DNA of 64,000 nucleotides from Candidatus Saccharimonadales bacterium (GTDB lineage: Bacteria > Patescibacteriota > Saccharimonadia > Saccharimonadales > DATKHC01): assembly GCA_035510465.1 (NCBI GenBank), contig DATKHC010000021.1:2876-66875 (forward strand). Reading direction: 5' to 3'. A program made the position numbers and the translations under genes. The notes beneath the pieces are model-generated. The model made no database searches. It saw only the letters and a list, made by a program, of their open reading frames with translations, and was not told the DNA's origin. The number at the start of each line of letters is the position of its first letter. Positions within the stretch are counted from its first letter, which is position 1. This document shows, piece after piece, positions 7,053-59,902 of this stretch.

Positions 7053-7124
7053 AAACAAGTTTAGGGCTTAGAACTACATAAATTTGTAAGGACTACTCAA
7101 AAACCGATATAGTAGGTAGACCAA

Positions 7125-9383: not shown

Positions 9384-9408
9384 GGTTTGTAACTAAGAAG
9401 GGGGACAT

Positions 9409-9708: not shown

Positions 9709-9738
9709 AAATAAACGATAAGCCTATAATGGTTAAGC

Positions 9739-10041: not shown

Positions 10042-10092
10042 TTAGGCCATAATCTTAAGGAAATATAAAGGAAAAGATATTAAGATTTCTCT

Positions 10093-10893: not shown

Positions 10894-10914
10894 GAAGACT
10901 CTTCTTAAGACTTT

Positions 10915-11940
10915 TTATACCGGAAACTCATCTACTAAATATCTGTATTTCTTGTCAGTCAACTTGGAAGTAGACCAATTCATATAAAATCTTGGTAAGT
11001 TTGCTAGTGCATCAACCGAAGCAGATTTTTTTAATTTTTTAAGTCTCCCCTCAGCCGACACGCAATACTGCTTGATAAGCGCAATCGTCGAGCCAAAACC
11101 ACCCAGTTTTATAATTTGATTAACCACTTCGCCTGCATCAACTTCGCGCTTCTTGCTAAGAAGCGACCTCAGCAAATCACTTTCGGCGTTAGCTAAGCTA
11201 GCAATTACGGGATGATTATAGTTACCTTCAACCACATCTCTCATGACAGGTTTGCCAAGTAATTCCTGATTGGATATAAAGTCCTGTAAATCGTCTATTA
11301 ACTGGAACATTATTCCAAAGTCACGCCCGAACTCATTAAGTGCATCTACGACGTTTTCGTCTTTTTTTGAGCTAATTGCACCAATACTAACCGAGGCGCT
11401 AATTAAAGAAGCCGTTTTGCCGGTTATAGCCTTAAACAAAGAGGCCGTAGAACGACTCGTATTGTAAAGGTCTTTAAGTTCCCGGCTTTGGCCATCACAT
11501 AGCTCAATTATTGTTTTTGAAATCAACTCAACGGATTCAGGGTTAATCCCATTGGCTGCTCTGTATGCACAAGCCAGCAAAAAATCGCCAAATAATATTG
11601 CTTGGCTGTCTCCCTCTAGGGCATTGGCAGTGGGAATGCCTCGCCGAACCGATGAGCCGTCCATTATGTCGTCATGGACTAAACTACTTAAATGAACTAA
11701 CTCGATGGACGTGCCAGCTGCGATCACTTTATCATCAATATCCGCTCCCGTAACCCCAGCTGAAACCATAACAAGAGCAGATCTTAGTCGCTTGGACTTG
11801 GCCTTTGTATAATGGGTCCCTAGTTTTTTGAAAGTTGGGTTAGAGGTATCAAGCACTTGCAGAAACGCTGTCTCAACTTTTTTCTCGTCTTCAACCAAAT
11901 TAGGTAAATTTAGAACCGATGATAGGTCTAGTGTGTTCAC
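10915..11940 (-). CDS. Polyprenyl diphosphate synthase (trans-isoprenyl, IspB/GGPPS-like)
   Basis: Both Asp-rich motifs are present: LVHDDIMD...RRG and FQLIDDLQD. It is the last gene of the cyo cluster. Confidence 0.85.
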   Translation of the reverse strand: MNTLDLSSVLNLPNLVEDEKKVETAFLQVLDTSNPTFKKLGTHYTKAKSKRLRSALVMVSAGVTGADIDDKVIAAGTSIELVHLSSLVHDDIMDGSSVRRGIPTANALEGDSQAILFGDFLLACAYRAANGINPESVELISKTIIELCDGQSRELKDLYNTSRSTASLFKAITGKTASLISASVSIGAISSKKDENVVDALNEFGRDFGIMFQLIDDLQDFISNQELLGKPVMRDVVEGNYNHPVIASLANAESDLLRSLLSKKREVDAGEVVNQIIKLGGFGSTIALIKQYCVSAEGRLKKLKKSASVDALANLPRFYMNWSTSKLTDKKYRYLVDEFPV

Positions 11941-11999
11941 AATCCTACATACTATAGCTGATCATTGGACTAAAAGCATGCTCAGCAGACCCTAGTCAG

Positions 12000-12875
12000 T
12001 TACGATAGGTAGGCATTTAGAGACAGCATTACGGGCAGAGCTATGATCACTATGAGTGAGAAGAAGAACATTCTTCGTGCCCAGAGCTTATCGTTGCTAG
12101 TCCTAAAGCCCTTTAAGCCCAGCCAGAGCCAAACAAGAGCGAAAGCTAGAGTTACTACCAGGTAACTATATCCAGCATAGCCAAAGATGCTCAGGAGGCT
12201 GACCGCAACCGCGTAGGCAATAATATAGATGATAATTCGTAACTTAGTTGCGTACATGCCTTTCTTTACAGGCAGCACAGGAAGCCCAGCATTTTTGTAA
12301 TCATCGAAGCGGTACATAGCGATTGAGTAGAAATGAGGCATCTGCCATAAGACTAGAATCAGGAATAGTATGACAGCCGCGCCGTTGAACTGACCCGTCA
12401 CCGCACAGTAACCGGCAGTTATAGGCGCCGCTCCGGCAATACTACCAACAACCGTTCCGTGCACTGATCGTCTCTTGGAAATGCCATAAAAAACTACGTA
12501 CACCAAAAAGGCAATCAGACCGATACAAACGGTTAACCAGTTTGTGTAGACAGATAATATCAGTGTTCCTAGTATGCCAAGTACAGTCCCGTAAATTATG
12601 GCAGCCCGTGAACTTAAATCACCTATTACTAAAGCCCGCTTGCTTGTTCTGGACATCTTTTTATCAATACCTCGGTCAATATAATTATTAAAAACGCAGC
12701 CTGATCCAATAACTAAGCTGATACCAATTAAGGTTTCAAGCAGGAGCAGGAAATGTATATGACCTTTGGAAGCGAGCAAAAAACCGCCCGTTGCTGTGAT
12801 TAAATTGCCATATATAATACCCGGCTTAGTCAGTCGGTAATAGGTTTTTAAGGTACCAGTGTTAAAAGCCGCCAC
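12000..12875 (-). CDS. cyoE: Protoheme IX farnesyltransferase (heme O synthase)
   Basis: 291 aa, polytopic UbiA-family pattern (YYRLTKPGIIYGNL...NNYIDRGIDKKMSRT). Overlaps the cyoD end. Confidence 0.9.
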   Translation of the reverse strand: MAAFNTGTLKTYYRLTKPGIIYGNLITATGGFLLASKGHIHFLLLLETLIGISLVIGSGCVFNNYIDRGIDKKMSRTSKRALVIGDLSSRAAIIYGTVLGILGTLILSVYTNWLTVCIGLIAFLVYVVFYGISKRRSVHGTVVGSIAGAAPITAGYCAVTGQFNGAAVILFLILVLWQMPHFYSIAMYRFDDYKNAGLPVLPVKKGMYATKLRIIIYIIAYAVAVSLLSIFGYAGYSYLVVTLAFALVWLWLGLKGFRTSNDKLWARRMFFFSLIVIIALPVMLSLNAYLS

Positions 12876-13248
12876 CTTGATTGTTCAAATAAGTATTAAC
12901 CTGCTCTGGCGTATATTGCTGTCGATAATTAAGGTTATTCATTATCCAAAGTGAGCCGAAAACTAAAATTGAAATAACTCCTATCATAAAAATTAGCACA
13001 AACAACTTCCAGCGAGGTTTTGATTCTTTACCTAAATGTAAGAAAAATATTAACTGAACGATGAACTGGATCATGGCGAGCCCAACTATTAAAATTACTA
13101 TGTTCCTGGGCGACAGAGCATGATGAACTACGAGCAAATAGGCGGTGACAGTAAATACAACCGAGAGGATATACCCCGTGAAATATGATCTAAACGACCC
13201 GTGCTCTGCGTTGTGGTGAGATACGACCGATGACGTTTTAGCGCTCAT
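12862..13248 (-). CDS. cyoD: Cytochrome o quinol oxidase subunit IV
   Basis: Three TM helices, GSFRSYFTGYILS motif and operon position. The ATG at 13248 gives an ATGA overlap with the cyoC stop. The track start at 13296 is probably too long. Confidence 0.75.
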   Translation of the reverse strand: MSAKTSSVVSHHNAEHGSFRSYFTGYILSVVFTVTAYLLVVHHALSPRNIVILIVGLAMIQFIVQLIFFLHLGKESKPRWKLFVLIFMIGVISILVFGSLWIMNNLNYRQQYTPEQVNTYLNNQGGGF

Positions 13249-13859
13249 CCCTGCACCGCTCCTCTCAGATAAACAATTGTGAATATGAATATCCAAATGA
13301 TATCCAGAAAATGCCAGAACAGGCTAAGCATAGTTAGTCTTCTGATGGTTGACGACTTAAGACCAGATTTAGCTACCCTTACAATTAGAACAAGCATCCA
13401 AAGCAAGCCAACGCTAATGTGAAGTCCATGTGTCCCAACTAGAGCAAAGTATGAAGACAAGAAACCACTCCGTGTCCAACTATTACCAGTGTGGGCAAGG
13501 TGCGTAAATTCTACAAGTTCCATAATCAAAAATGCCAGCCCTAGCAAAAATGTAATCGTAAACCAACCAACCACTTTGGTTTTATGGTTGTGTCGCGCCG
13601 CCAGAATTGCTAGCCCGCACGTAAAGCTACTGGTAAGTAGGATAATCGTTTCGGTCAGTATGTAGGGAAGACTAAATAGCTGCCTGCCATCTGGGCCGCC
13701 ATTAGTATTGTTATTCAAAACTGCGTAGGTAGCAAAAAGACTTGCAAACAAGACACAGTCCGTCATTATGTATACCCAAAAACCAAAAAGGTTTTTATCG
13801 AATTTTTTTTGCACAAATGTACTATTTGTAACCGGGTGGGTTGACGCAACTTCACTCAT
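13245..13859 (-). CDS. cyoC: Cytochrome o quinol oxidase subunit III
   Basis: 204 aa, 5 TM, C-terminal WHFLDIIWIFIFTIVY motif of the subunit III family. Confidence 0.85.
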   Translation of the reverse strand: MSEVASTHPVTNSTFVQKKFDKNLFGFWVYIMTDCVLFASLFATYAVLNNNTNGGPDGRQLFSLPYILTETIILLTSSFTCGLAILAARHNHKTKVVGWFTITFLLGLAFLIMELVEFTHLAHTGNSWTRSGFLSSYFALVGTHGLHISVGLLWMLVLIVRVAKSGLKSSTIRRLTMLSLFWHFLDIIWIFIFTIVYLRGAVQG

Positions 13860-15856
13860 GCGTAGCCCCTCCCCGGGGATAATTCAACCTCGATCTTCTC
13901 GACTTCATCCGCTGTTATTACTTGTTCGGTATTATCACTAGTTGTGTAAATAATTATGGTTAAGATCACGCCCAGAAGTCCAACTATTGCCAGCCACCAA
14001 ATATGCCAGACTGCACTAAACCCAAGTATCAAACTGAAGCCAGCGATAATTATGCTAGCGCCCGTGTGTTTTGGCATAATTATATCTTCGTATTCTGATT
14101 TCTTCTGCTTAACTCCCTTGGCTCGGGCTTGTTTCATTTCCCAGAACGGATCTCGGCTATTTACCTCGGGCTCAATCGCAAAATTGTAGAATGGAGCCGG
14201 GGAACTAGTTGACCACTCAAGCGTCCTGCCATTCCACGGGTCTCCGGTTGTATCCAGGTTTTGTTTTCTTTGAAAAATACTGACGACGATCTGCAAGAAA
14301 AGCATTGCTGCTCCCAGCGCAATGATGCTTGCGCCAATCCCGGCTACTATAAACAGCGGGTGCCATCCCGTGGCAACGCTATAGTGATCGATTCGTCTAG
14401 TAGCTCCCATCAAACCTAGTATGTACAGCGGCACAAAGGCAAGCAGGAACCCAATGAACCAAAGCCAAAAAGAGTATCTTCCAAGTTTTTCGTTTAACTT
14501 AAACCCAAAGATCTTTGGAAACCAGTAATTTAGACCTGCAAAATACCCGAACAAGGCTCCCCCGACTATCATGGTATGAAAATGGGCTACAAGAAATAGA
14601 CTATTATGAAGCTGAAAGTCAGCCGGCGGCACAGCCATAACTACACCAGCTACTCCGCCCACCGTAAACAACCCGACAAACCCAAGAAACCAATACATTG
14701 GTGTTTTAAAGCTAATCTTTCCTCTAAACATGGTCGCAATCCAATTGAATATTTTTACGCCTGTAGGAATCGCGATAATCATAGTCATAATACCGAAGAA
14801 GCCATTGACGTCAGCACCCGCGCCCATCGTAAAGAAGTGGTGTAACCAAACGCTGAAAGACAAGACTACGATAGCTCCAATTGCCCAGACCATGGTTGTA
14901 TAACCAAATAGTCTCTTTCTTGAAAAAGTTGCCACGACTTCAGAATAGATACCGAACGCAGGCAAGATCAAAATATATACTTCGGGATGACCCCAGGCCC
15001 AAATCAAATTAACGTACATCATTAAATTACCCCCTCCAGCCGCCGTGAAGAAGTGCGTTCCAATCGTTCGATCCATATATAGCAGCGTCAGGGTTACTGT
15101 TAGGATTGGGAAAGCAAATATAACTAGAAACATGGTCCCTAAAACGCTCCAACTAAACATAGGCATTTTCATCATTGTCATGCCTTTGCAGCGCATCTTA
15201 ATAATTGTTACGAAGAAATTAACTCCCGATAGCAAGCTTCCAATCCCCGCTATCTGTAGGCTCCATATCCAATAGTCAACACCAACGCTGGGACTATACT
15301 GAAGTTCAGAAAGTGGTGGATAAGCTAACCAACCAGCTGCCGAAAAATCGCCGATAATTAGCGATAGATTGACAAGTATCATGCCAGAAGCAAACAACCA
15401 AAAACTGGTGAGGTTTAGAAACGGAAAGGCGACATCACGTGAACCAAGTTGTATCGGAAGAATCAGATTTATTAGCCCAAACATTAAACCCATGGCAACA
15501 AAAAAGATCATTATTGTGCCATGAGAGGAAAATATTTGTTGGAAAGTATTGGCTGATACTATTCCGTGAGATGCCCCAACAGAAGTAGCTTGTTGAGCCC
15601 GCAGTAGTAGCGCATCAGATCCTCCGCGAACCAGCATGATGAGCGCGACAACGATGTACATAACACCAATTTTTTTAGGATCCGGATTTGTTAACCACTC
15701 CCGCCAAAGCCAACGCCACCTTTTTTTGTAGGTTAGAAAGGCAGCTAGGCCCACTACTAGTAATACCATTGAGACTGCCGCCCCTGCAGTTATTGGGGCG
15801 GTCGGGAACTGATTGAAGGACAATTTGCCGAGTAAATTAGCGAACAGATTCATCAT
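13856..15856 (-). CDS. cyoB: Cytochrome o quinol oxidase subunit I (heme-copper oxidase)
   Basis: 666 aa with classical heme-copper motifs (WAWGHPEVYILILPAFG, HHFFTMG, VAHFH). Confidence 0.95.
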   Translation of the reverse strand: MMNLFANLLGKLSFNQFPTAPITAGAAVSMVLLVVGLAAFLTYKKRWRWLWREWLTNPDPKKIGVMYIVVALIMLVRGGSDALLLRAQQATSVGASHGIVSANTFQQIFSSHGTIMIFFVAMGLMFGLINLILPIQLGSRDVAFPFLNLTSFWLFASGMILVNLSLIIGDFSAAGWLAYPPLSELQYSPSVGVDYWIWSLQIAGIGSLLSGVNFFVTIIKMRCKGMTMMKMPMFSWSVLGTMFLVIFAFPILTVTLTLLYMDRTIGTHFFTAAGGGNLMMYVNLIWAWGHPEVYILILPAFGIYSEVVATFSRKRLFGYTTMVWAIGAIVVLSFSVWLHHFFTMGAGADVNGFFGIMTMIIAIPTGVKIFNWIATMFRGKISFKTPMYWFLGFVGLFTVGGVAGVVMAVPPADFQLHNSLFLVAHFHTMIVGGALFGYFAGLNYWFPKIFGFKLNEKLGRYSFWLWFIGFLLAFVPLYILGLMGATRRIDHYSVATGWHPLFIVAGIGASIIALGAAMLFLQIVVSIFQRKQNLDTTGDPWNGRTLEWSTSSPAPFYNFAIEPEVNSRDPFWEMKQARAKGVKQKKSEYEDIIMPKHTGASIIIAGFSLILGFSAVWHIWWLAIVGLLGVILTIIIYTTSDNTEQVITADEVEKIEVELSPGRGYA

Positions 15857-45591: not shown

Positions 45592-47229
45592 CTAGATGTT
45601 CGGTAAATGATCGTAAAGATGTCCCAATTTATACTCATCTCGAATCATACGCTTAAGCGTTTCTACGTTTTGTCCAATTTTTACGCCTGGGTTCATGGTT
45701 CTGTAAGGATCAAAGATCAGTTTTACCTTCATGAGAAGGTCATACACTTCATTTCCCCAAACCAGCGGCAAGAATGGGGCCCGCAGACGCCCATCCCCAT
45801 GTTGAGCCGTGATACTTCCGCCTAAACTGACAACCAATTTGTAGTATTCTTCCATTATCTTAAAGATCTTTTGACGATCACCTACCTGCGCAAGATCTAG
45901 TAGTGGCTGAAGATGTAGGTGTCCATCTCCCGCATGTCCATATATTGCAATCGGAGTTCGGTTCTTAGCAAACAGCTCATAAACAGCAGTTATATATTTA
46001 CTCAATTTATCTGGTGGCACTATTCCATCTTCAATTATAGGCACCGCTTTTGAGTTGCCGTCTCCTTGGGTGTAAACGGCCACTGAGGAATATCTTATTT
46101 TCCAAAGTTCTTCTTTACGATTTTGATCGGTTTCTAATTGATGCGGTATCTGATTGTCTTTCAGAAGCTTAGCGACTTTTTTGCTAAGTCTTTTTTGGAC
46201 ATGCTCACTATCAGTATCAAATTCGACCATTAGTACAAACTTCGGAAACGGTTGTTTAATTACGTTTTTTAAGAGATTTGGATTTAATTTGTTAACCGCT
46301 TCGAGTAAATTCTTGTCGACGATTTCGATCGCACTAGGTAGCTCAGGAAGCAATCTGAGTTCCAGTATGATTTCTTCCATAATCTTCAAGTTATCAAAAA
46401 GAGCGGCTATTAGCGTCGAATTCGGCCTGCGTTGTTCTGTTCGAAGTGTAGCCTCAGTGATTATGCCCAGCGTCCCTTGTGAGCCTATAAAGAGTGGTGT
46501 TAGGTCAAACGAACCGTCTTTTCTTTTGATTAACCCGAGGTTGTATCCAGAGGTATTCTTGGTGGTGCCAAGCCGCATTTTTTCAATAAGATCTTTATCC
46601 TCTTCTATTAAGATATCAAGGCTTCGGTAAATCTCACCTTCCATATTGGATTGACCCAGTTTCTTACTGAGTTCGCGTTTTGTTAGACGCCGCGTTTCGA
46701 TGATTTCGCCGTTTGCCAGAACTACCCTTAGCTCTTTAACGTAATCTATGGTCATGCCGTACTTTAAACTTTTTTCTCCACCCGCATTATTGCCCATCGC
46801 CCCACCAATTGTGCTGTAATCAGCGGAGGCGGGATAAGGAGGCAAGAAGCGATCATGCGTAAATAGTGCTTGTTGAAGCTGTGCGTAGTTGGTCCCAGGT
46901 TCAACCACCACCACTCCGGTTTTGCTATCCAGTTCCAAAACTCTATTCAAATGAGCTGGAAAAACTAAAATTATGCCACTTCCAATCGCTGCACCTGTTT
47001 GATCCGTTCCGGATCCCCTAGGGGTGATTGGGAATACCCTACCACGTTCAGCCAGTTGCCAAGTAAAACGAGCAATTTTCCTAACGTCATTCTCGTTCAT
47101 TGGATAGACCACGACTGCGGGTATCATTATGAAGATACTGGAGTCTGTCGAAAAATATCGTCTGGCATCGTTGCTGGCGATAACTTCGCCAGATATGTGT
47201 TCCTGCAAATAATGAGCAATTTTATTCAT
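45592..47229 (-). CDS. FAD-linked oxidase (GlcD/D-lactate dehydrogenase-like), paralog of 21163..22818
   Basis: 545 aa with the same architecture: VVVYPMNENDVRKI...PRGSGTDQTG...GHAGDGHLH...GGSITAQHGDG. Confidence 0.85.
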   Translation of the reverse strand: MNKIAHYLQEHISGEVIASNDARRYFSTDSSIFIMIPAVVVYPMNENDVRKIARFTWQLAERGRVFPITPRGSGTDQTGAAIGSGIILVFPAHLNRVLELDSKTGVVVVEPGTNYAQLQQALFTHDRFLPPYPASADYSTIGGAMGNNAGGEKSLKYGMTIDYVKELRVVLANGEIIETRRLTKRELSKKLGQSNMEGEIYRSLDILIEEDKDLIEKMRLGTTKNTSGYNLGLIKRKDGSFDLTPLFIGSQGTLGIITEATLRTEQRRPNSTLIAALFDNLKIMEEIILELRLLPELPSAIEIVDKNLLEAVNKLNPNLLKNVIKQPFPKFVLMVEFDTDSEHVQKRLSKKVAKLLKDNQIPHQLETDQNRKEELWKIRYSSVAVYTQGDGNSKAVPIIEDGIVPPDKLSKYITAVYELFAKNRTPIAIYGHAGDGHLHLQPLLDLAQVGDRQKIFKIMEEYYKLVVSLGGSITAQHGDGRLRAPFLPLVWGNEVYDLLMKVKLIFDPYRTMNPGVKIGQNVETLKRMIRDEYKLGHLYDHLPNI

Positions 47230-47461
47230 GGAATAGGCAAAAAATGAGTCCCTAACTTAAGCAGTAATCTGCTGATTATAATACCATATCAAACTATCTT
47301 ATATCTGTAACCGCGCTGAAGCTTACCAATTAAAAATACCCAGGGATTAGCCGGGTACTTTTACTTCGTGCGCGCCCACCCGCGGGCGGGTATTTTTGTA
47401 TTTGAAGTTTTTGTTTTACTCGCCGCGCAATTGCGCACGAATACACTATAAAGATAACCGT

Positions 47462-52020: not shown

Positions 52021-52239
52021 ATGGACATCGATAACTTACGGGAGCAAGTCCCAAGCGCAGAACGAGAATTAGGTGATAACCATGGATTTGTAGCAGAGGT
52101 TTTCAGGCTTCAGGCATTAAGAGAGCAACTTGCGCCAAGGTTTCAACTGCTCGTAGAATTTCTCAGTGGCACTTACGATAGGTTACGGCCCTTAACCGAG
52201 ACTCCACCGCTAAAGATTGTTTTAGAGGAGGTCCCCTGA
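52021..52239 (+). CDS. Hypothetical protein (possibly the 5' part of a frameshifted gene)
   Basis: 72-aa ORF ending at a TGA inside GTCCCCTGA. The +1 frame is open from 52223 into the next ORF. Confidence 0.35.
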   Translation: MDIDNLREQVPSAERELGDNHGFVAEVFRLQALREQLAPRFQLLVEFLSGTYDRLRPLTETPPLKIVLEEVP

Positions 52240-52267
52240 CGAGGATGGCGTTTTAGCTGTAGCAATA

Positions 52268-52672
52268 GTGCCTCTTAAGCTCAGAAGTGACGGAGAAGAC
52301 TGGAATGAGACATTCGACCGCTATTTTAATTTCACAAAAGCTGTGCCACCGATTGGATTTGGGTTGGAATTTTATTTCGTTCCCTCTAATCCCGGTGTAG
52401 GCGAAAAAGATGTTGTGATTGGGCAAGAGAGCACCTTATGGCAATCTACGTCCGGGCAACTCAGTTTTGACATGATCCCAGGGCTGTTAGCTTGGCCACC
52501 TGCACCCACCTCTGCCACTCAGGAAAAACTTAGGGAACTTAAAGCCTACGAGGATATTTATTGGGGGGGCAGGAAAGAACAGATCGAGGATTTAGAAAAA
52601 TCTGTTGCGAGGATCAGACTTGCTCTAGATGATCCTGTGCTGAATCCAACGATACACCGAATGAGAGCTTAA
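52268..52672 (+). CDS. Hypothetical protein (possibly the 3' part of the same gene)
   Basis: 134-aa ORF with a GTG start in the track. Its frame is open upstream to 52223. Confidence 0.4.
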   Translation: MPLKLRSDGEDWNETFDRYFNFTKAVPPIGFGLEFYFVPSNPGVGEKDVVIGQESTLWQSTSGQLSFDMIPGLLAWPPAPTSATQEKLRELKAYEDIYWGGRKEQIEDLEKSVARIRLALDDPVLNPTIHRMRA

Positions 52673-52675
52673 AGA

Positions 52676-52876
52676 TCAGGTCTCTTCTTTCGCTTGATCA
52701 GAGTTGCCAATTTTGACACCTTCGAATACATGACTTCTCGGTCCTACCACACCAATCCTTATCCCGTCTTCCCTCTCAACTATGACAAGAGTAGCGTTTT
52801 CACCTACATCAGCTACCTCATAAGTTGTGGTCTGAGCCGAAGTGTCTTCTGCTCCCGATATTTTTTCAGCTGACAT
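52676..52876 (-). CDS. Small hypothetical protein
   Basis: 66 aa. On the minus strand TTAGAA, 17 nt, TATAAT, 6 nt, ATG supports expression as a leaderless mRNA. Confidence 0.45.
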   Translation of the reverse strand: MSAEKISGAEDTSAQTTTYEVADVGENATLVIVEREDGIRIGVVGPRSHVFEGVKIGNSDQAKEET

Positions 52877-52922: not shown

Positions 52923-52980
52923 TGGTGGACTTGAAGCAATTTCTTTCGAACACCTTTTAGGTTGGTTAGATCATCTTATT
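52923..52980 (+). repeat. R1 repeat, copy A
   Basis: TGGTGGACTTGAAGCAATTTCTTTCGAACACCTTTTAGGTTGGTTAGATCATCTTATT. One mismatch to copies B and C in the first 32 nt. Confidence 0.8.
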
Positions 52981-53038
52981 ATAAGCTTTCGACAGCCGTG
53001 AAATAAAATCGATCGAACAATTAGGTATAACAACTGTT

Positions 53039-53100
53039 GGATGGAAGGCGTGGACGAGTCAAGTTGCTCATTTAGCCCATAGCATCCATCTTTTTTATTT
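53039..53100 (+). repeat. R2 element, copy A (hairpin plus T tract)
   Basis: GGATGGAAGGCGTGGACGAGTCAAGTTGCTCATTTAGCCCATAGCATCCATCTTTTTTATTT. About 80% identical to copy B. Confidence 0.7.
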
Positions 53101-53122
53101 GGCATTCAGTTACCAAAAAGTC

Positions 53123-53151
53123 TTGACAAGTTAATTATATGTGCGTACAAT
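53123..53151 (+). promoter_or_regulatory. Consensus sigma70-type promoter of the mazEF-like pair (leaderless)
   Basis: TTGACA (53123-53128), 17 nt, TACAAT (53146-53151), 6 nt, ATG (53158). The inverted repeat CGTACA/TGTACG spans the -10 and is a possible operator. Confidence 0.65.
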
Positions 53152-53157
53152 GTACGT

Positions 53158-53475
53158 ATGAATACAATAGACACAAATCTTACAACTTCCGGCAATAGCG
53201 TTGCAGTGCGCTTACCTAAAGAGCTACTTAAAATGAGTGGCCTAGGTAATAAGGTAACCCTACAGGCAAAAAAAGGTAAAATAATTATTAGTAAGCCTTC
53301 TAACCCCCGTGCCGACTGGAGTCAGAATATTAAAGCAATGGTAGAGAAGTATGGAGATCCTTCTGAAGAGTTTACCGAAATGAATGATTCCTTAGTCGGG
53401 GATGGGTTAGATAACTTGCCGTGGGACGGGATTACTTACGAAGAATGGCTGAAAGATAATGATAGAGTTTCCTAG
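53158..53475 (+). CDS. AbrB/SpoVT-fold antitoxin (MazE-like)
   Basis: NSVAVRLPKELLKMSGLGNKVTLQAKKGKIIISK is a swapped-hairpin AbrB-type motif. Overlaps the toxin gene by 17 nt. Confidence 0.8.
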   Translation: MNTIDTNLTTSGNSVAVRLPKELLKMSGLGNKVTLQAKKGKIIISKPSNPRADWSQNIKAMVEKYGDPSEEFTEMNDSLVGDGLDNLPWDGITYEEWLKDNDRVS

Positions 53476-53785
53476 ACAGGGGTCTATCTATTGGTTTAAC
53501 CCCGAGCCTTCTAAGGGAGCTGAATTACGTAAGATTCGTCCTGGAGTTATAGTTTCTCCTGATGAAATGAATAGCAATATAAAAACCGTAATTATTGTTC
53601 CGCTTACTTCTGCTGTTAGGCCATGGGACTTTCGTTTGAAGATATTGGTTGCTGGACATAGTTCAAGTTTAGCCTGCGACCAAATACGTTCTATAGATAA
53701 AACTAGGCTAAAGTACCAAATGGGTAGCCTAAAAAAATCTGATTTAGAAAAACTGTTCGTATTATTGCAGTCAATTTTCTCCTAA
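53459..53785 (+). CDS. MazF/PemK-family endoribonuclease toxin
   Basis: GSIYWFNPEPSKGAELRKIRPGVIVS...VIIVPLTS...CDQIRSIDKTRL follows the PemK/MazF pattern. Confidence 0.85.
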   Translation: MIEFPRQGSIYWFNPEPSKGAELRKIRPGVIVSPDEMNSNIKTVIIVPLTSAVRPWDFRLKILVAGHSSSLACDQIRSIDKTRLKYQMGSLKKSDLEKLFVLLQSIFS

Positions 53786-53793
53786 TTGAAAAA

Positions 53794-53850
53794 TGGTGGA
53801 CTTGAAGCACTTTCTTTCGAACACCTTTTACGCTGGTTAGACAATTTATT
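53794..53850 (+). repeat. R1 repeat, copy B
   Basis: TGGTGGACTTGAAGCACTTTCTTTCGAACACCTTTTACGCTGGTTAGACAATTTATT. Confidence 0.8.
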
Positions 53851-53918
53851 ACAAGTTTCTGAGAATTATTAAATAATGTGACTTGGCCTAGACAAAAGTC
53901 GTACGTACAATAATAGGT

Positions 53919-53980
53919 GGATGGAATGCGTGGACGAGCCAAGTTGCTCAATAAGTCCAAAGCACCCGTCCTTTTTATTT
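53919..53980 (+). repeat. R2 element, copy B
   Basis: GGATGGAATGCGTGGACGAGCCAAGTTGCTCAATAAGTCCAAAGCACCCGTCCTTTTTATTT. Preceded by TTGGCC, 17 nt, TACAAT. Confidence 0.7.
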
Positions 53981-54959
53981 ATACTTCACTAATAACGTCA
54001 AAGCCCTTGAAGCTTCCTGTGATCGAAAGGCCAATTATCTTTCCCTTGCACAGCCCTCTTTGTCCTATTTTCTTGGCAGTCTCATTTAATGTTGACCCCG
54101 AGCCAACCGCATCATCAATAAGAAGAATGTTATTATACTTCCTCGTATCATCCACGCTAATAGTTTCTCGAGCGTTAATTATTCTATCTTCAATCTTGTT
54201 TAGAGTCTTCTGGGGTACTGCAATGGGAGTTTTTACCTTAAAGATAGGAATGGTTCTCACGTTTAAGTTAAGCCTGCTTTGAAGCTGTTTTACTAGCTGT
54301 AGCTCCCTTCTAACTGTTGGCGGTATAAAGCCAACCCCATCTACTTCGTATTTATCTATCAGACGAAGAACGATTGGCTTAATAATGTCACTGAGCTCAT
54401 TTATAAGTTTCCGGTTTTGGCTTTGTTTGGCAAATAGTAACAATTGCCCTAGTTTTGTTTTGCCAAATATTTCTACACTATAGAAATCAATATAAAACAC
54501 TTTATCGAGAGCAACTTCATCAAATGACGTTTTCAGCTTGTACATTCCGTCTATGAGTCCGGCTTTCTTATAATTGCTATACTTGAGCATAGTCTGTTTA
54601 TAACGCTCAGCAGTTTTGGCAAGGTCAAGACTTCTTTCGTTACACCAATATATAAAACCCTCCGTGCCTTCCTGGATGGTTCCCCGGGGAGTAATATACA
54701 GAAACTCCTTTTCGATTATTCTCTTTGCGGCTGCATTGATGATTGAAGAATCACGAGCTTCAGAAGATATTGGTTTGTCTGCTATTGAATAATAAACCCT
54801 TGGTGGCTTGCCAGTCCGCTTAACTTGGTCGTTATCCAAAAGGGCTTTAAGCTGTTTCCTAACAGCTCTGTCCGTGATACCTAGGTAATCAATAAGCTCG
54901 TTGCCTGTCACTTGACCAGTGTTTCTCAGATACTCAACAATTTTTTTTGAAGTTTTCAT
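53979..54959 (-). CDS. Winged-HTH fused to a ComF-like phosphoribosyltransferase
   Basis: N-terminal DeoR-like wHTH (VTGNELIDYLGITDRAVRKQLKAL). C-terminal PRPP-binding loop ILLIDDAVGSGSTLNE, with a ComF-like central region. Confidence 0.7.
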   Translation of the reverse strand: MKTSKKIVEYLRNTGQVTGNELIDYLGITDRAVRKQLKALLDNDQVKRTGKPPRVYYSIADKPISSEARDSSIINAAAKRIIEKEFLYITPRGTIQEGTEGFIYWCNERSLDLAKTAERYKQTMLKYSNYKKAGLIDGMYKLKTSFDEVALDKVFYIDFYSVEIFGKTKLGQLLLFAKQSQNRKLINELSDIIKPIVLRLIDKYEVDGVGFIPPTVRRELQLVKQLQSRLNLNVRTIPIFKVKTPIAVPQKTLNKIEDRIINARETISVDDTRKYNNILLIDDAVGSGSTLNETAKKIGQRGLCKGKIIGLSITGSFKGFDVISEV

Positions 54960-54975
54960 ACTAACAGTATATCAC

Positions 54976-55010
54976 AAAAGTTCCTAGTTCCTAGTGTATT
55001 AGGAACTTTT
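54976..55010. terminator. 11-bp perfect inverted repeat flanked by A and T tracts (bidirectional terminator or operator)
   Basis: AAAAGTTCCTA-13 nt-TAGGAACTTTT followed by TTT. The loop holds a tandem GTTCCTAG repeat. It sits between relE and the PRTase -10 (TGATATACT, 6 nt before the ATG). Confidence 0.45.
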
Positions 55011-55058
55011 TTTAATATCCCTTCGGAGAATTAATAGATCCCTATTAAGAGTCCGCTC

Positions 55059-55115
55059 TGGTGGACTTGAAGCACTTTCTTTCGAACACCTCTTAAGCTG
55101 GCAAGATCATCTCCT
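55059..55115 (+). repeat. R1 repeat, copy C
   Basis: TGGTGGACTTGAAGCACTTTCTTTCGAACACCTCTTAAGCTGGCAAGATCATCTCCT. The left flank GTCCGCTC is shared with the copy at 55800. Confidence 0.8.
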
Positions 55116-55148
55116 GAAGGCCTTTGATCTCAATAACACTAAATCAGA

Positions 55149-55409
55149 TTATTTGTACAGTTGAGGATGGGTTCCTATAGCTACAAATAGCGCCGAACTT
55201 TCGCCCTGCGGTAGATAGTGTGCTCGCCAATAGCCACCAAATGCTATCGAACGATGACCTTTCCACCTACCTGTTAGAGGATGATTATAAAGATCTGGGT
55301 GGTAAGGTTCGGATTCGAACAAAGCAATTACTTTTTCGAAACGTTTTTTCTGTGCTTCAGGTAACTTCTTATATTGTTTATCAAACGATTTGTGGAAAAC
55401 GCTTCTCAT
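55149..55409 (-). CDS. RelE/StbE (YafQ-like) mRNA interferase toxin
   Basis: 86 aa with the FDKQYKKLPEAQKKRFEKVIALFESEPYHPDLYNHPLTGRWKGHRS pattern of RelE/ParE-superfamily toxins. Confidence 0.8.
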   Translation of the reverse strand: MRSVFHKSFDKQYKKLPEAQKKRFEKVIALFESEPYHPDLYNHPLTGRWKGHRSIAFGGYWRAHYLPQGESSALFVAIGTHPQLYK

Positions 55410-55681
55410 AACGATCTAAGGTGGGCGATGGTCTCTTCTGTTGAATTTGTACGAGTAATGTTACGGCCAGCTTTATAGTCGGCTTCAGCCTCTTTAATGA
55501 TTTTTTGCAAATAGGGCGTTGGCTCAAGAGTAGTACTAAACTCAACCCTACCATTACGGAGCATTTCTTTAATTTGAGCATTCAATAACGCAGACACAGG
55601 CAACCCAACCTGAGCGGCGAAATCCTTAAGTTGTTCCTTTGTTTCGGGGTCTGTTTTAATATTGAGTATTGCTGTGTTCAT
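55406..55681 (-). CDS. RelB/DinJ-family antitoxin
   Basis: NIKTDPETKEQLKDFAAQVGLPVSALLNAQIKEM is an RHH DinJ-type N-terminus. 4-nt overlap with the toxin. Confidence 0.8.
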   Translation of the reverse strand: MNTAILNIKTDPETKEQLKDFAAQVGLPVSALLNAQIKEMLRNGRVEFSTTLEPTPYLQKIIKEAEADYKAGRNITRTNSTEETIAHLRSL

Positions 55682-55687
55682 AAAGAC

Positions 55688-55717
55688 ATTATATGACTAT
55701 TATATACACATTGTCAA
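55688..55717 (-). promoter_or_regulatory. Consensus promoter of the relBE-like pair (leaderless)
   Basis: On the minus strand: TTGACA, 18 nt, TATAAT, 6 nt, ATG (55681). Confidence 0.6.
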
Positions 55718-55799
55718 TACGATATTTCATTATTTTTCGAACACAAAATTGGATTACTCTACCCCTGTTTACATATCAAGCTAATCTTCAAGTCCGCTC

Positions 55800-55829
55800 T
55801 GGTGGAGGTAATGGGACGTTACTTGAACC
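55800..55829 (+). repeat. Diverged R1/att-like copy at the left border of the GC-rich island
   Basis: TGGTGGAGGTAATGGGAC-gttac-TTGAACC versus the tRNA-Leu(CAG) 3' end strand TGGTGGGGATGAGAGGAC-TCGAACC. That is 13/18, a 5-nt insertion, then 6/7. Confidence 0.6.
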
Positions 55830-56230
55830 ATTCTGACCAGGGAGAATGCCTCCGGAACCTCCTCGAAATGCTCCCATCTGGGTCCAAAACGGCGAAAGTT
55901 CGAACCCCAAGGCGGGTCTGCCGGCGTCTCGACCCATCCCGCGTGGAGGACCTAATCCGGGGCTACATAGAGGGAGTGCCGGTCGATGATCTCGCCACCC
56001 AGTTCGGGGTTGATCAGAGCACCGTCCAGAAGCACGCTCGCCGACATGACTTGCCCCGCCGGTCACCCCGATTAGGTCCTAACCAGACCGAGGAGGCAGT
56101 TCGGCTCTATCTCGCTGGTCAGTCCTTGGCCAAACTGTCCGATCACTTCGGTGTTGCGACTGACACCGTCGCTCTTGCTTTGCGTAGAACCGGGGTCACC
56201 TTGCGACCACGGCGGGGGTGGTCGAAGTAG
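55802..56230 (+). CDS. Tandem helix-turn-helix DNA-binding protein
   Basis: Two HTH units: VPVDDLATQFGVDQSTVQKHARR and QSLAKLSDHFGVATDTVALALRR. GTG start inside the att-like repeat. Confidence 0.6.
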   Translation: MEVMGRYLNHSDQGECLRNLLEMLPSGSKTAKVRTPRRVCRRLDPSRVEDLIRGYIEGVPVDDLATQFGVDQSTVQKHARRHDLPRRSPRLGPNQTEEAVRLYLAGQSLAKLSDHFGVATDTVALALRRTGVTLRPRRGWSK

Positions 56231-56447
56231 CTCGTTTTCAGGTTCCCGTAGAGGGATCAGACCGTCGATGCGACGCCAGTCAATCTATCCGTTTCAGCGT
56301 TGTCAGCCGTCGGCCTCTGATCGCAGATCACTCTTTGGCTCACTCTTCAAGAGGTCAGATTTAGATTGTCGGGTTGTTGTCGTACAATAGAAACACTATG
56401 AAGAGGGGATGTGACGTGGAGACTGAGTTGCGGGTGGACGGTACGTC

Positions 56448-57323
56448 ATGACGATGGCTGAGGTACCGAATAAATTTGAAGATAAGATTCTTCGGAGAGA
56501 TGAGTTCGCCGCACACTACGAAGTCGTTACGGATCTCCCAGATATCAGCGAAGGCCGTCAATCGAGGGTCTCGGTATTGCGGTTCAAAATCGGCGGTGAA
56601 TCAGAAGAGCTGGTTGTATGGAAACGGATGGGCGTTGGCAAACACCTAACCAAACGAGAAGCTCAGTTTCTGCATTCTCGCTTACGGACGTATCGTCGTA
56701 GCCTGCGAACCTCTGGTTGGAACATTCCGAAGCTTTTTCATACTCATGTGGCCAAGGTCGACATGGAATGGCAGGTATTGAGTTATGAACAGTTCATCCC
56801 AGGTGGGGATGCCGACCACATGTTCAAGAAAGCAAATATTCCGAACTATCGGAAGTGGTTCTTAATTCGAACTGCTCTTGAGACGCTAGCAGAATATGAC
56901 CAGCATCTAATTGGTCCGACCACCATTGAGGGTCAACAAGTGACGTTACTCCCTCACGGTATTGATCTGAAGCTTGCAAATCTCGTCAACGACGAAGGCC
57001 AGGTGTGGTTCGTGGATCTGTTCGGGCCGAAGGAACTCGAGGATGGAGAGTGGGTGAGCTACAACTCAAAACTCGATCATCTATCGGAAGAACGTTTGAA
57101 GGCGGTGACGGCCACAAGAGAAGGAAGTGTATTGCGCCTATTCCGACTCGCAGAAGAGAGTTGGCTGGAAAGTGGGTCAATCCAGAGGGAGACTCTTCAA
57201 GACAACTTCGAGGACGTCCTCGAACAATCAGGTATTCCAGAGCGCGAGGCTACGTTCATCATGGATCAGATCCGATCCGACTACCCGTGGCTCGACAAGC
57301 TCTACTCGGAGGAGCTTGTCTAG
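56448..57323 (+). CDS. Protein-kinase-like fold protein
   Basis: LVVWKR (VAIK-like Lys), HGIDLKLANLV (HxDxxxxN catalytic loop) and WFVDLFGP (DFG-like) occur in the correct order and spacing. Confidence 0.55.
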   Translation: MTMAEVPNKFEDKILRRDEFAAHYEVVTDLPDISEGRQSRVSVLRFKIGGESEELVVWKRMGVGKHLTKREAQFLHSRLRTYRRSLRTSGWNIPKLFHTHVAKVDMEWQVLSYEQFIPGGDADHMFKKANIPNYRKWFLIRTALETLAEYDQHLIGPTTIEGQQVTLLPHGIDLKLANLVNDEGQVWFVDLFGPKELEDGEWVSYNSKLDHLSEERLKAVTATREGSVLRLFRLAEESWLESGSIQRETLQDNFEDVLEQSGIPEREATFIMDQIRSDYPWLDKLYSEELV

Positions 57324-57566
57324 CTGACAAGTAAGGTTCCTTGAGGATATTCAGCGTACCGACCGACGGTGGATCGGACATCGGAGATGCGCAACTCTCA
57401 GCGGTCGCGCACCCACCGGTCAGCCTGACTACGGGGCCATTTCACTCCTCCCACGCCGCCCTGGCCAATGCCTCACTGAGGTCACGCCGTTTAGGCACTT
57501 CTACGGAGTCTCGGGATCCTTAGAAAGCCCCCGGGCATGCCCAAAGTCTGTACGAACGGATGAACC

Positions 57567-57668
57567 ATGGAGCAGCGCAGACTGATGAATCAGGCAATCT
57601 TCGGCAAGCTGTACGTCAACGAAGGTGGAAATATCCGGAGTCCTAAGCTGCGTGTTCGAGAGATGTGA
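57567..57668 (+). pseudogene. Possible C-terminal remnant of a large serine recombinase
   Basis: The 33-codon ORF MEQRRLMNQAIFGKLYVNEGGNIRSPKLRVREM resembles the RRxLNQAxFxKxYV segment I recall near the C-terminus of actinobacterial serine recombinases. Upstream frames are broken. Confidence 0.25.
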
Positions 57669-57873
57669 TCCGGACGCCGTGATCATCAAGCACTCGGTTG
57701 TGGTCAGTTACAGCAGCCTTAATCGCTTTGATGTCGTCCTCAATCTTAGAAATATGAGCTACAGACTTCTTGATTTCACGGCTGTCAGCCTGAAGAAGAG
57801 ACATGCCCTCAGCTAATGCTTGCATCTTGCCGTCTATGTCTTCAAGTAGTACTTCGAGGTGATCTTTTTTCAC
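57643..57873 (-). CDS. Small coiled-coil protein, last gene of the minus-strand operon
   Basis: 76 aa, heptad-like, low GC (23/60 in one line) within the GC-rich island. Confidence 0.4.
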   Translation of the reverse strand: MKKDHLEVLLEDIDGKMQALAEGMSLLQADSREIKKSVAHISKIEDDIKAIKAAVTDHNRVLDDHGVRITSLEHAA

Positions 57874-57954
57874 GATAGATCAATTCTAACATGCGCAACC
57901 AAAATGCGGACACGCACATCTTGATCCTCGAAGATGCGTATTGCTCTATCTACC

Positions 57955-59161
57955 CTAAGTCACACGCCCTTCTACAAAGTTGTTGACTAATTCTGCTAGA
58001 ACAGTATCCGGAACATCGAAGAACTCAAATACCATAAAGAGGGGCTCCACTAGACTGCGAACCAAGTCGACAAGATTTGTTTGGAGCTCTGCGAGCGTGC
58101 AGTCAATCGTTGAACTAACGGCTTCTTCTTGCGTGGTCCGAGCTTGATGCATAAGCCGGTTGCCGGCTGATCGGAGATCCCTTCCTCTGAGTCCACCGTG
58201 TACCACTTCGATATGTAGCTGCGTGGAATCAGGCGCCTCCAATCGAGTGTAACAGCGAGCCAAAAACAACAGGAGCTCGGTGATTCGAATAATTCGTGTG
58301 TCAAAGAAAATCGACCCAGGCAGCCTTTCATCTTCAAATAGACTGCTGAGGAGGTAGAAGTCACCAGTTCGACGCACATACCAATAGTCGTAAGTGCCGT
58401 GTTCTCGAAAACCATCACCAGCAGGTAGAGATACTTCGGCGCGAACTCCATCTGCAGTTGGTTGTGGTCTCATATTATCGCGACTTAGTACTATTCCTAT
58501 TGGCCAGCCGAAGGTCTTGACTTGAGACTCCTCGACCGACGAAAGCAGCACAGACTGACGCCATGTACCCTTCGGTAACAGTGAAACGGACGCCTCCATG
58601 TAACCCTCGAGGTGTACTACTGCGAGACCAGATAAAGCCCTTTCACGTTGCTCATCTATCCATTCTGTGTCGACCGCAGGTTGCGGCTGAATCGGAGTTT
58701 TGTCAGGTTCACCGGGCAGTGGCGGCTCGATGATTGCCAAACGTCGCTTTATCCGCTTCTCCAGCTCTTCTCGGAACTCCGCCGGTTTCTTACTATCCCA
58801 AAGCAACCGGTCATATCCTTCTAGGTCAAAATGAACATGGGGACCATCATGTTTGTAGTTTGGGCTGCTGTGATGATGGTCCTCACGAACCGTAAGGATG
58901 AGATTGCGTTTCTTGCCAAGACCCATTGCATATCCGACTTCCAAGTAACAATTCGGTCGCTCGTTTGTTAGATCGGCGACAATAATCTGCGAGCTTTCAA
59001 GGAACGCCACGATCTCAGACTTAAGGAGCTCTCCGGAATTGTCCCGATCGACTCTCTTGGGGGGCGAGCCCACACGCTTCGATCGCAGGAACAATAACGC
59101 TGTCACAGATGCGATCCATTTCGGCATCGCCTATCTGCATGATGATGAATGCATCATCCAT
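57955..59161 (-). pseudogene. Nucleoside 2-deoxyribosyltransferase/TIR-like N-terminal domain fused to an unknown ~260-aa domain; frameshifted in a G6 run
   Basis: The ATG at 59161 gives MDDAFIIMQIGDAEMDRICDSVIVPAIEACGLAP. After the run 59059-59064 the frame shifts to KRVDRDNSGELLKSEIVAFLESSQIIVADLTNERPNCYLEVGYAMGLGK (track ORF 57955..59127). Removing one G restores a ~401-aa ORF. Confidence 0.6.
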
Positions 59162-59176
59162 TCTTACAAATCCTTG

Positions 59177-59614
59177 TCATCCCGCCTCTTTACCGTTGGC
59201 TCGCCGCTCGGCGTCCCTCTGGATGGCGACCTCGAGAAGGAGCTGCGCCAACTTGTCCACCTTGATATCCGACCTGGCCAGTGAGTGGATACGGATTCTA
59301 CCCCTCTGACCTCGTGGAGCTTTCGTCTGGGTTGGCTCACGGTCACTCGGCCCGGGGTCGCTCGGCTTGAGCGCTTGACGTATCCGGAGATAGAGCTTGC
59401 CCGCTCGATGAGGAAGAGACGGATGGTCAGCAGTAACGAGCTGGCGATGGAGGACGGCGTCCTTATCGTTGAGCTTCTTGGTCAGCGCGTAGAAACCATG
59501 AAGCTCTAGTTGCTGGGCGTAAGGCAAGATGGTGAAGACATTGCGGTTGCTGTTCCATACTTCGAGAAGGAACTGACGTTGCTCTAAGTAATCGTGATTC
59601 GTTAAACGTGGCAC
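59177..59614 (-). CDS. Hypothetical protein, first gene of the operon
   Basis: 145-aa ORF with a GTG start embedded in an inverted repeat. No motif recognised. Confidence 0.45.
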   Translation of the reverse strand: MPRLTNHDYLEQRQFLLEVWNSNRNVFTILPYAQQLELHGFYALTKKLNDKDAVLHRQLVTADHPSLPHRAGKLYLRIRQALKPSDPGPSDREPTQTKAPRGQRGRIRIHSLARSDIKVDKLAQLLLEVAIQRDAERRANGKEAG

Positions 59615-59662
59615 CGGTACATTGCTCTCTTACGCAATCAGTGTCTCATACATGTACCGGTG
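59612..59662. promoter_or_regulatory. 11-bp perfect inverted repeat overlapping the start codon of 59177..59614
   Basis: CACCGGTACAT, 29 nt, ATGTACCGGTG. A third CCGGTACAT lies at 59759-59767 inside the palindrome GGTACATCGTGTACC. Confidence 0.5.
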
Positions 59663-59816
59663 AGCAAAATACCTTGACGGACTTGAACCATTTAACAGCG
59701 GTCGCGATTTTGGGGTTGAGTGACAACCAGTGACGCGTAGCCACACGGTTTTGGTTGTCCGGTACATCGTGTACCTCTGTTATAGTGGGATCTATTCTAT
59801 ACTATTCCTATAGTTA

Positions 59817-59902
59817 TGGTGGGGATGAGAGGACTCGAACCTCCACGGGCTATGCCCACTAGTACCTGAAACTAGCGTGTATACCAATTTCACCACATCC
59901 CC
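59817..59902 (-). tRNA. tRNA-Leu (anticodon CAG)
   Basis: Manual fold: GGGGATG acceptor, anticodon loop TTCAGGT, long variable arm, T-loop TTCGAGT, encoded CCA. Confidence 0.85.

Follow-up and report, generated by a model that had tools for sequence, protein, structure and literature searches.

How do unrelated small gene modules come to stand one behind another at a single tRNA gene? The question is raised by a 64-kb stretch of DNA (here called the window) from an NCBI metagenome-assembled genome of Candidatus Saccharimonadales, whose closest relatives are ~60-64% identical in the flanking SBP protein. Beside its tRNA-Leu(CAG) gene lie toxin-antitoxin modules and a phosphoribosyltransferase (PRTase) module, each adjoined by a copy of a short repeat, R1. 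We consider it probable that they were laid down by serial site-specific integration of small non-autonomous elements, akin to cis-mobilizable elements (CIMEs), at the CCA end of tRNA-Leu, with the recombinase supplied in trans.

The R1 array and the ends of its cassettes

The 32-nt core of R1 has exactly three matches in the window, all on the plus strand (52923, 53794 and 55059), where none is expected from shuffled sequence. Copies B and C are identical, copy A is one base off, and the likeness extends to ~48-57 nt. A different self-promoted module adjoins each copy. This exact search bears out the initial annotation of the DNA, which had placed three R1 copies at the borders of different autonomous modules; the modules, their promoters, the tRNA-Leu(CAG) gene and a GC-rich block that it described were likewise recovered by Pfam, promoter matching, ARAGORN and Rfam, and base composition.

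The tRNA-Leu(CAG) gene (59817-59902, minus strand; ARAGORN and Rfam) is the attachment target and turns its CCA end towards the array. Farthest from it is the mazEF cassette, whose distal (tRNA-far) end is R1 copy A (52923-52979), reading ...GTGTTCGAAAGAAATTGCTTCAAGTCCACCA up to the junction on the minus, tRNA-sense strand. Copy A of a second conserved block, D2 (53039-53100, plus strand), a long hairpin followed by a T-run, directly precedes the mazEF promoter, and the cargo (53123-53785, plus strand) consists of a mazE-like gene (53158-53475) and a mazF/PemK-like gene (53459-53785). The next cassette has R1 copy B (53794-53850) as its distal end, D2 copy B (53919-53980, plus strand) as a terminator hairpin against the stop codon of the PRTase gene, a gene for a winged helix-turn-helix (HTH) PRTase with a PsyrT-like C-terminal region (53979-54959, minus strand), and the tRNA-proximal end motif TTAAGAGTCCGCTC (55045-55058; GAGCGGACTCTTAA on the tRNA strand). 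In the third, R1 copy C (55059-55112) forms the distal end without a D2 block, the minus-strand cargo (55149-55717) comprises a yafQ-like gene (55149-55409) and a relB-like gene (55406-55681), and the proximal end motif is CTTCAAGTCCGCTC (55786-55799). Between this relBE cassette and the tRNA gene lies a GC-rich island of another element family (55800-59816).

Independent Logan assemblies from two sequencing runs matched all cassettes, and the junction at which the island begins (junction D), at 100% identity, and their contigs end inside R1 cores, as a short repeat predicts. One Logan contig (L015) extends at 100% identity from R1 copy C to the tRNA gene, taking in relBE, junction D and the GC-rich block, and rules out an assembly or binning chimera, including for the GC-rich block. 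Pfam finds no recombinase catalytic domain in any open reading frame (ORF) of the interval, in agreement with the initial annotation, which had seen no intact integrase or transposase ORF there. Searches of the whole window by tblastn with XerD and large serine recombinase queries gave no match either; the XerD query was a heterologous E. coli sequence, and this negative is weak for a tyrosine recombinase.

We compared the ends of the cassettes with those of elements in related genomes, read on the tRNA strand. All 19 listed junctions, including two unoccupied tRNA ends, read ...CCRCCA at the boundary. The cassettes carry two conserved ends, the distal R1 of ~50 nt and a proximal motif of ~10-15 nt, and both short ends are kept in four cassettes. 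They measure 0.74-1.27 kb and hold one operon apiece. The R1-family element ends share the consensus GTGTTCG.A.GAAAGT..TTCAAGTCC.CCA, with most elements ending GTGTTCGAAAGAAAGTGCTTCAAGTCCACCA, and five element starts read GARYGGAC: those of the window relBE and PRTase cassettes, of single cassettes in two other species (L001 and L002) and of a Fic-encoding element in a more distant locus (L020).

The relBE cassette has the most elaborate ends. Its proximal motif is a perfect 10-bp inverted repeat of GGACTTGAAG in R1, so that the joined ends, CTTCAAGTCC-ACCAGAGC-GGACTTGAAG, form a perfect 10-8-10 palindrome centred on the junction between CCA and flank. This composite may be an attP-like recombinase core site, to judge from its symmetry. 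An exact 16-nt direct repeat, AGTCCGCTCTGGTGGA, brackets the cassette (55050-55065 and 55791-55806). In the stretch from the relBE promoter to the end of the cassette, a partial R1 remnant (55728-55744, CATTATTTTTCGAACAC) matches the outer part of R1 at 14 of 17 positions in the same orientation; it is probably the leftover of a further cassette that has been almost wholly deleted.

Such ends could also belong to transposon-like passenger cassettes, that is, mobile insertion cassettes or miniature inverted-repeat transposable elements, with GGACTTGAAG as terminal inverted repeats, a transposase acting in trans and an 8-bp target duplication (GCTCTGGT). The relBE cassette does have perfect 10-bp terminal inverted repeats and identical flanking repeats, although the latter are actually 16 nt long. 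However, inverted repeats and duplication occur together in this one cassette alone, whereas the others share just TGGT/CCACCA at their two ends; every insertion is at the same tRNA-Leu nucleotide; and dispersed copies are absent from the window, the L001 genome and the plasmid, phage and viral collections. Transposition of this kind is extremely unlikely.

The distribution of R1 is equally narrow. Beyond the window it occurs once in the sole GTDB species-representative genome that has it (the L001 genome), it has one true match in 241 million metagenome records, and it has no match in collections of plasmids, phages and viral contigs; two further hits from the metagenome scan (L003 and L004) are chance matches to the core alone. 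The initial annotation had considered that R1 might be a generic repeat scattered over unrelated loci. It is not scattered, and a repetitive extragenic palindrome or other dispersed intergenic repeat is ruled out, as R1 is limited to one locus in the window and one copy in the L001 assembly.

R1 also appears to lack an intrinsic fold. Neither strand, whether taken as DNA or, with the whole R1-D2 unit, as RNA, folds better than shuffled sequences (z -0.7 to +1.3), a result that rules out an attC-like folded site or a structured RNA and points instead to a double-stranded protein-binding site. With its T-loop-like motif and final ...TCCACCA, R1 is reminiscent of a tRNA 3' end. Its overall tRNA similarity, however, is not significant: identity anchored on the CCA is 11-16 of 34 positions, and ARAGORN and Rfam are negative, so that R1 as a tRNA or transfer-messenger RNA (tmRNA) 3' end, or as a displaced tRNA-Leu fragment, was also rejected.

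D2 is of a different nature. The block is common to copies A and B and absent from copy C and from L002. Across the four copies compared, its hairpin has 18 pairs, 5 of them with compensatory changes, and is followed by a T-run; its G.U pairs are valid on the plus strand alone. The covariation marks D2 as a genuine structure, which we read as a putative plus-strand intrinsic terminator. In the several elements that have it, D2 would face outwards just inside R1 and would shield the cassette from incoming transcription of its neighbour. The genuine, covarying plus-strand hairpin of D2 with its U-run, and the minus-strand ending ...TCCACCA of R1, might alternatively suggest a small RNA gene, a regulatory leader or a tRNA- or tmRNA-like gene that was duplicated together with its neighbours. 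However, neither ARAGORN nor Rfam, at the gathering threshold or at E<=10, places an RNA gene on R1 or D2. Beyond the poor folding described above, D2 is missing from copy C and L002, no conserved promoter lies upstream of R1, and D2 is on the strand opposite to the tRNA-like reading of R1. We give an RNA gene hardly any credence.

Related loci and the GC-rich island

If the cassettes are integrated units, their content should be seen to vary in related genomes with boundaries at R1, as the initial annotation had proposed, and this is the case. Two other Saccharimonadales species have a single R1 cassette each. In L001, R1-D2 is followed by a promoter, a ribbon-helix-helix (RHH)-like/PIN pair and AAAGTCCGTTC (the GAACGGAC motif), which abuts tRNA-Leu(TAG). 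In L002, which is syntenic with the window, R1 without D2 is followed by a promoter, an RHH/PemK pair, AAAGTCCGTTC, tRNA-Leu(CAG) and the SBP ortholog. The cargo is thus variable and self-promoted: the two MazF proteins compared are 30% identical and the remaining cargoes are unrelated. The R1 core, at 32 of 32 positions, is the same in the window, L001 and L002. In contrast, comparison of the window with L002 shows 4 differences over the 86 positions of tRNA-Leu(CAG) and 40% of residues changed in the SBP protein. The cassettes are restricted to tRNA-Leu, at two isoacceptors.

Four further relatives (L008, L010, L012 and L013) are syntenic in having the SBP gene, tRNA-Leu(CAG) and variable genes, and have neither R1 nor the AAGTCCGYTC start motif beside the tRNA. 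In L008 and L010 the variable genes are followed by those for an FAD oxidase and LemA, and in L008 then by M48 and LigA; in L012 and L013 the tRNA end is occupied by another island family. Two further contigs, those for P0002 and P0004, stop at the tRNA. Separately, we noted in L002 (positions 390-700) a GC-rich stretch of ~300 nt with a 92-residue ORF, which has the FAD oxidase gene on one side and R1 on the other and is set in AT-rich intergenic sequence; it has no Rfam match at the gathering threshold.

The closest view of an exchange comes from a 1,063-nt contig of an unrelated Joint Genome Institute (JGI) metagenome (L007). It is 100% identical to the window over 53126-53829, covering mazEF and the core of R1 copy B, and past that core changes abruptly to a diverged D2 version of its own and to another gene on the minus strand, which has no Pfam match (PIN-like by eye). 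Between the two sequences a cassette has thus been exchanged, the breakpoint falling in R1.

A breakpoint within a 36-nt invariant stretch, with no recombinase gene found nearby, could equally result from RecA-dependent homologous recombination at the R1 patch after DNA uptake, with no dedicated site-specific recombinase involved. A patch of 33-48 nt is, however, a poor substrate for homologous recombination. Moreover, such exchange would leave unexplained the constant abutment on tRNA-Leu ...CCRCCA, the conserved GARYGGAC end with its 10-8-10 palindrome with R1, and the occurrence of the same architecture at two tRNA-Leu isoacceptors. As an account of the array as a whole it is very unlikely.

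R1-type ends are found on a larger scale in L020, the locus of the closest PRTase relative (75% amino-acid identity). Here a gene for a 488-residue serine recombinase directly follows tRNA-Leu(TAG); ~8 kb on come the PRTase homolog (7001-7981; 70% nucleotide identity, with the same operator palindrome) and an R1 at 82% identity whose relative orientation is unchanged. Beyond this diverged R1 the sequence reads GAATGGACC... and continues into an HTH-Fic gene and TraG/VirB4/TraC-like genes of a type IV secretion system (T4SS). This arrangement suggests that R1-type ends also delimit larger elements, and the PRTase cassette of the window looks like a deletion derivative of one.

It also raises the possibility that all the cassettes are dead relics: immobile, eroded remains of full-size islands, of which only the att ends and a loss-resistant toxin-antitoxin or defence gene are left, R1 being kept by descent alone. 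Consistent with this idea, the PRTase gene and R1-like end in L020 stand at the end of an 8-kb segment whose first gene encodes a serine recombinase, the GC-rich island of the window likewise has no recombinase, and the R1 remnant at 55728-55744 would represent ongoing decay. However, a core that is identical at 32 of 32 positions between genomes at 60% protein identity is more conserved than a scar without function should be, the two short ends persist in four cassettes, and an identical mazEF cassette with another neighbour in L007 indicates recent exchange at the level of the cassette. We regard the relic explanation as distinctly unlikely.

The GC-rich island calls for separate treatment. 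The GC content of the block at 56-60 kb is 0.50-0.52, compared with ~0.42 elsewhere. Its ORFs encode an HTH protein (55802-56230), a 390-residue protein with a TIR-like segment (57955-59127, minus strand; PADLOC, 1.4e-11) and products of 291, 145 and 76 residues that gave no confident family assignment. The initial annotation had listed a diverged R1 copy at 55800, and had every module bordered by R1. The latter holds for the three cassettes; the island is different. Its sequence at 55800 has only the 16-nt junction AGTCCGCTCTGGTGGA in common with copy C, and just 7 of those 16 nt are within R1; junction D (55800-55841, GAATGGTTCAAGTAACGTCCCATTACCTCCACCA up to the boundary on the tRNA strand) aligns to R1 as poorly as it does to the tRNA-Leu 3' end. 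On the tRNA strand, however, it is identical at 25 of 34 positions to the distal island ends of L012 and L013, a score reached by none of 20,000 shuffles, and the HTH protein is 56% identical to one encoded in those islands. Position 55800 is therefore not a copy of R1 but the pseudo-tRNA-3'-like distal end of an island from a different element family. In L013 this family is linked to a serine recombinase; it shares the tRNA end with the cassettes, and the island was probably the last to be inserted.

The relatives carry further members of this second family. L012 and L013 encode an identical SBP protein and have different content beside the tRNA, which is strain-level accretion at the same hotspot. 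In L012, two islands of the family are arranged in tandem at tRNA-Leu(CAG) (8902-14090), starting AGTTATGTAAAGC... and ending ...CACCTCCACCA, and both distal, pseudo-tRNA ends read TGGTTCGAGAGTTGTCCGGTCACCTCCACCA up to the boundary. In L013 an intact gene for a 601-residue large serine recombinase overlaps the 3' half of the tRNA; the tRNA-proximal end has the inverted motif CAACTCTCGAACCA, and the joined ends make an imperfect palindrome of ~51 bp. The L013 recombinase and that of L020 are only 28% identical. R1 and the L013-type ends have the same 17-nt spacing from a GTTCGA.AG motif to the CCA end. A motif displaced outwards by ~5 nt relative to the tRNA T-loop is how an attP-type half-site of a serine integrase would look, which we treat as a lead only.

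A peptide (...NQAIFGKLYV...) had led us to suspect a serine-recombinase gene remnant at 57541-57668, and this candidate was discarded, the tblastn match to the L013 recombinase being noise (best E = 0.085). Near both ends of the GC-rich island are T-arm-like repeats (GGACTTGAACCATTT and ACTTGAACCATTC; 59679-59693 and 55818-55832). L012 has a 16-nt copy of the tRNA T-arm and acceptor (GGTTCAAGTCCTCTCA) ~125 nt from tRNA-Leu, the same distance as in the window, and the window flank at 59617-59816 is homologous to the L012 flank. The T-arm-like repeats may have been left by yet another integration system, one whose crossover falls in the T-loop.

A proposed integration mechanism

Serial accretion of small integrative cassettes at a tRNA-linked hotspot, one of two readings offered by the initial annotation, fits all of the comparative evidence. 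Its other suggestion, a non-integron cassette-capture mechanism, is unneeded, the pattern being that of known att-site accretion. In the mechanism that we propose, an element read on the tRNA strand starts directly after ...CCACCA, usually with GARYGGAC, carries one self-promoted toxin-antitoxin or defence unit, and ends in R1. The crossover would fall in or beside CCACCA, and newcomers would enter at the tRNA-proximal junction, so that the likely order of arrival is mazEF, PRTase, relBE and then the GC-rich island. The 16-nt repeat around relBE could be the product of recombination between the composite site and an older junction, made up of the previous start and ...TCCACCA. An excised relBE circle, if the cassette is still mobile, is predicted to have the junction ...GTGCTTCAAGTCCACCAGAGCGGACTTGAAGATTAGC... 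on the tRNA strand. The enzyme would act in trans, and by analogy with the sister elements at the tRNA-Leu genes of relatives a large serine recombinase is the likeliest type; alternatively, it may be a tyrosine recombinase with an 8-bp overlap.

Several observations weigh against this mechanism. The mazEF cassette starts with TTTTTCAATTAG rather than GARYGGAC (this start resembles the flank of the L001 R1, TTTTTATCAATCG), and in cassettes other than relBE the end-to-end repeat is just the 6-nt CCACCA. R1 and the ends of the serine-recombinase islands are weakly alike (19-20 of 34 positions, p ~0.02), the link between recombinase and R1 in L020 is a positional one, and the recombinase-proximal end there (AATAGAACGC...) is not visibly palindromic with the R1-like end. 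No recombinase for R1 was found in the window, in 8 kb around L001 or in the 6.4-kb L002 contig, and neither circular junctions nor empty sites nor excision products were seen. The breakpoint in L007 can be placed no more finely than the invariant core, so that homologous rather than site-specific recombination could explain it. Finally, the independent R1 loci number five: the window, L001, L002, L007 and the diverged copy in L020.

A bolder version of the trans-acting scheme is that R1 cassettes, far from being products of decay, constitute a dedicated integron-like capture system of Saccharimonadia. Self-promoted and insulated by terminators, these toxin-antitoxin and defence mini-cassettes with their conserved recombination site of ~50 nt would undergo active insertion, excision and shuffling at the CCA ends of tRNA-Leu genes, through a recombinase (probably of the serine type) whose gene lies elsewhere. 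We consider this possible but unlikely; if true, it would provide ultra-small episymbiont genomes with a compact, exchangeable defence locus.

Cargo, surroundings and comparison with known systems

Pfam assigns the cargo proteins to MazE/PemK, HTH_11 with PRTase, and RelB/YafQ. Cassette genes lie on both strands, and mazEF and relBE have their own near-consensus promoters: TTGACA-17-TACAAT at 53123-53151, with 11 of 12 sigma-70 consensus positions, and TTGACA-18-TATAAT at 55717-55688, with 12 of 12. The HTH-PRTase protein, a candidate element regulator or defence protein, resembles the PsyrT toxin of PADLOC in the C-terminal part of the latter. With 3,531 homologs at 57-75% identity, the family is very widespread in Saccharimonadales and bacteria of the candidate phyla radiation (CPR). 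Given so many homologs, we considered whether it is a housekeeping gene and rejected this, because its nearest relative has serine recombinase and T4SS genes alongside, a setting that identifies it as cargo of mobile elements. An operator-like inverted repeat upstream of the gene (54986-55007, AGTTCCTAG...CTAGGAACT) is kept in L020.

In the spacer between R1 copy B and D2 copy B we noted a promoter-like sequence, TTGGCC-17-TACAAT (53883-53911), and in the same spacer GTACGTACAAT, which resembles the operator region of the mazEF promoter (GCGTACAATGTACG). The promoter-like sequence may be a fossil from an earlier cassette of the mazEF type.

Synteny with the relatives breaks at the far border of the array. 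In L008 and L010 a block of FAD oxidase, tRNA-Leu(GAG) and tRNA-Val genes lies between the variable region at tRNA-Leu(CAG) and LemA, whereas in the window this block is found beyond LigA, with the FAD oxidase gene at 45601-47232. The displacement of this block implies a rearrangement with one breakpoint at the hotspot. Between LemA and R1 copy A (52021-52876) are three orphan ORFs of 72, 134 and 66 residues in sequence of slightly raised GC content (0.448). The 134- and 66-residue ORFs, the two that were scanned, have no Pfam match, and all three could be older, decayed cargo past the recognisable array. Cumulative GC skew falls steadily from 0 to ~-2.9 across the first 50 kb of the window and is flat from 50 to 64 kb, the array included.

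CPR bacteria, and Saccharibacteria among them, have tiny genomes whose mobile elements are poorly characterised. In this lineage tRNA-Leu 3' ends are integration hotspots with several users, and toxin-antitoxin and defence genes there travel as two-ended units of ~1 kb without a recombinase of their own. If these units are mobilised in trans, they offer a minimal model of defence-gene exchange in reduced genomes, and R1 together with GARYGGAC would give genetic tools for Saccharibacteria an att site ready for use. If they are only relics, the locus still records the survival of addictive modules and att ends after the loss of the islands that brought them in.

Among known systems, CIMEs and tandem accretion were defined from tandems made up of integrative elements, both conjugative (ICEs) and mobilizable ones, in streptococci, related to ICESt1 and ICESt3 of Streptococcus thermophilus or located at tRNA-Lys in S. 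agalactiae (PMC5704250). The array described here resembles them in that three cassettes and one island stand in tandem directly 3' of tRNA-Leu(CAG), with single cassettes abutting tRNA-Leu in L001 and L002, and in that the cassettes are flanked by att-type boundaries (...CCRCCA) and have no integration or transfer genes by Pfam on all cassette ORFs and by tblastn. It differs in the far smaller size of the units (0.74-1.27 kb), in the extra conserved ends beyond a 6-nt tRNA-derived repeat, in its CPR host and in having no known conjugative partner.

The ssrA islands of Dehalococcoides are likewise in tandem, with short 3'-end repeats, an extra conserved motif and a CcrB-like serine recombinase gene that overlaps the att site, and those without an integrase have been read as CIMEs (PMC3146451). 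The L013 recombinase gene overlaps tRNA-Leu in the same manner. However, the Dehalococcoides islands amount to tens of kilobases in total, many have a six-gene integration module, and they insert in the T-loop of ssrA with a 20-bp repeat, whereas the cassettes here are ~1 kb, target the CCA end of tRNA-Leu and have a repeat of 6-16 nt.

Acinetobacter dif modules are 0.8-3 kb long, often encode toxin-antitoxin pairs, lie between inverted 28-bp XerC/XerD sites (11-6-11) and are found mostly on plasmids (PMC6449649). They share with the R1 cassettes the plan of small recombinase-less modules between conserved sites, with the same module appearing in different contexts. In contrast to dif sites, R1 copies are direct repeats, their 10-8-10 composite is unlike dif, and the array is chromosomal and anchored to a tRNA gene. 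Integrons, sedentary chromosomal ones included, are likewise ordered arrays of small single-function cassettes split by a recombination site, in which toxin-antitoxin cargo is common. Here, however, no intI/attI/Pc platform was found; R1 is unstructured and keeps its sequence, whereas in attC it is the structure that is conserved; and the cassettes have their own promoters and lie in both orientations, whereas integron cassettes are mostly promoterless and in one orientation.

The features of large-serine-recombinase att sites are seen in the sister island of L013, with its imperfect palindromic attP of ~51 bp and adjacent recombinase gene. The outer T-loop-like motif of L013-type ends is ~5 nt further from the junction than the T-loop of a real tRNA. 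The inner palindrome of the R1 composite is centred on the junction between CCA and flank, ~5 nt off the centre of the L013 palindrome, and has no adjacent recombinase. We found no description in the literature of such cassettes in Saccharibacteria or Patescibacteria. What is new relative to known accretion is the combination of miniature, two-ended, recombinase-less cassettes with a conserved end of ~50 nt, an occasional built-in terminator and a CPR host.

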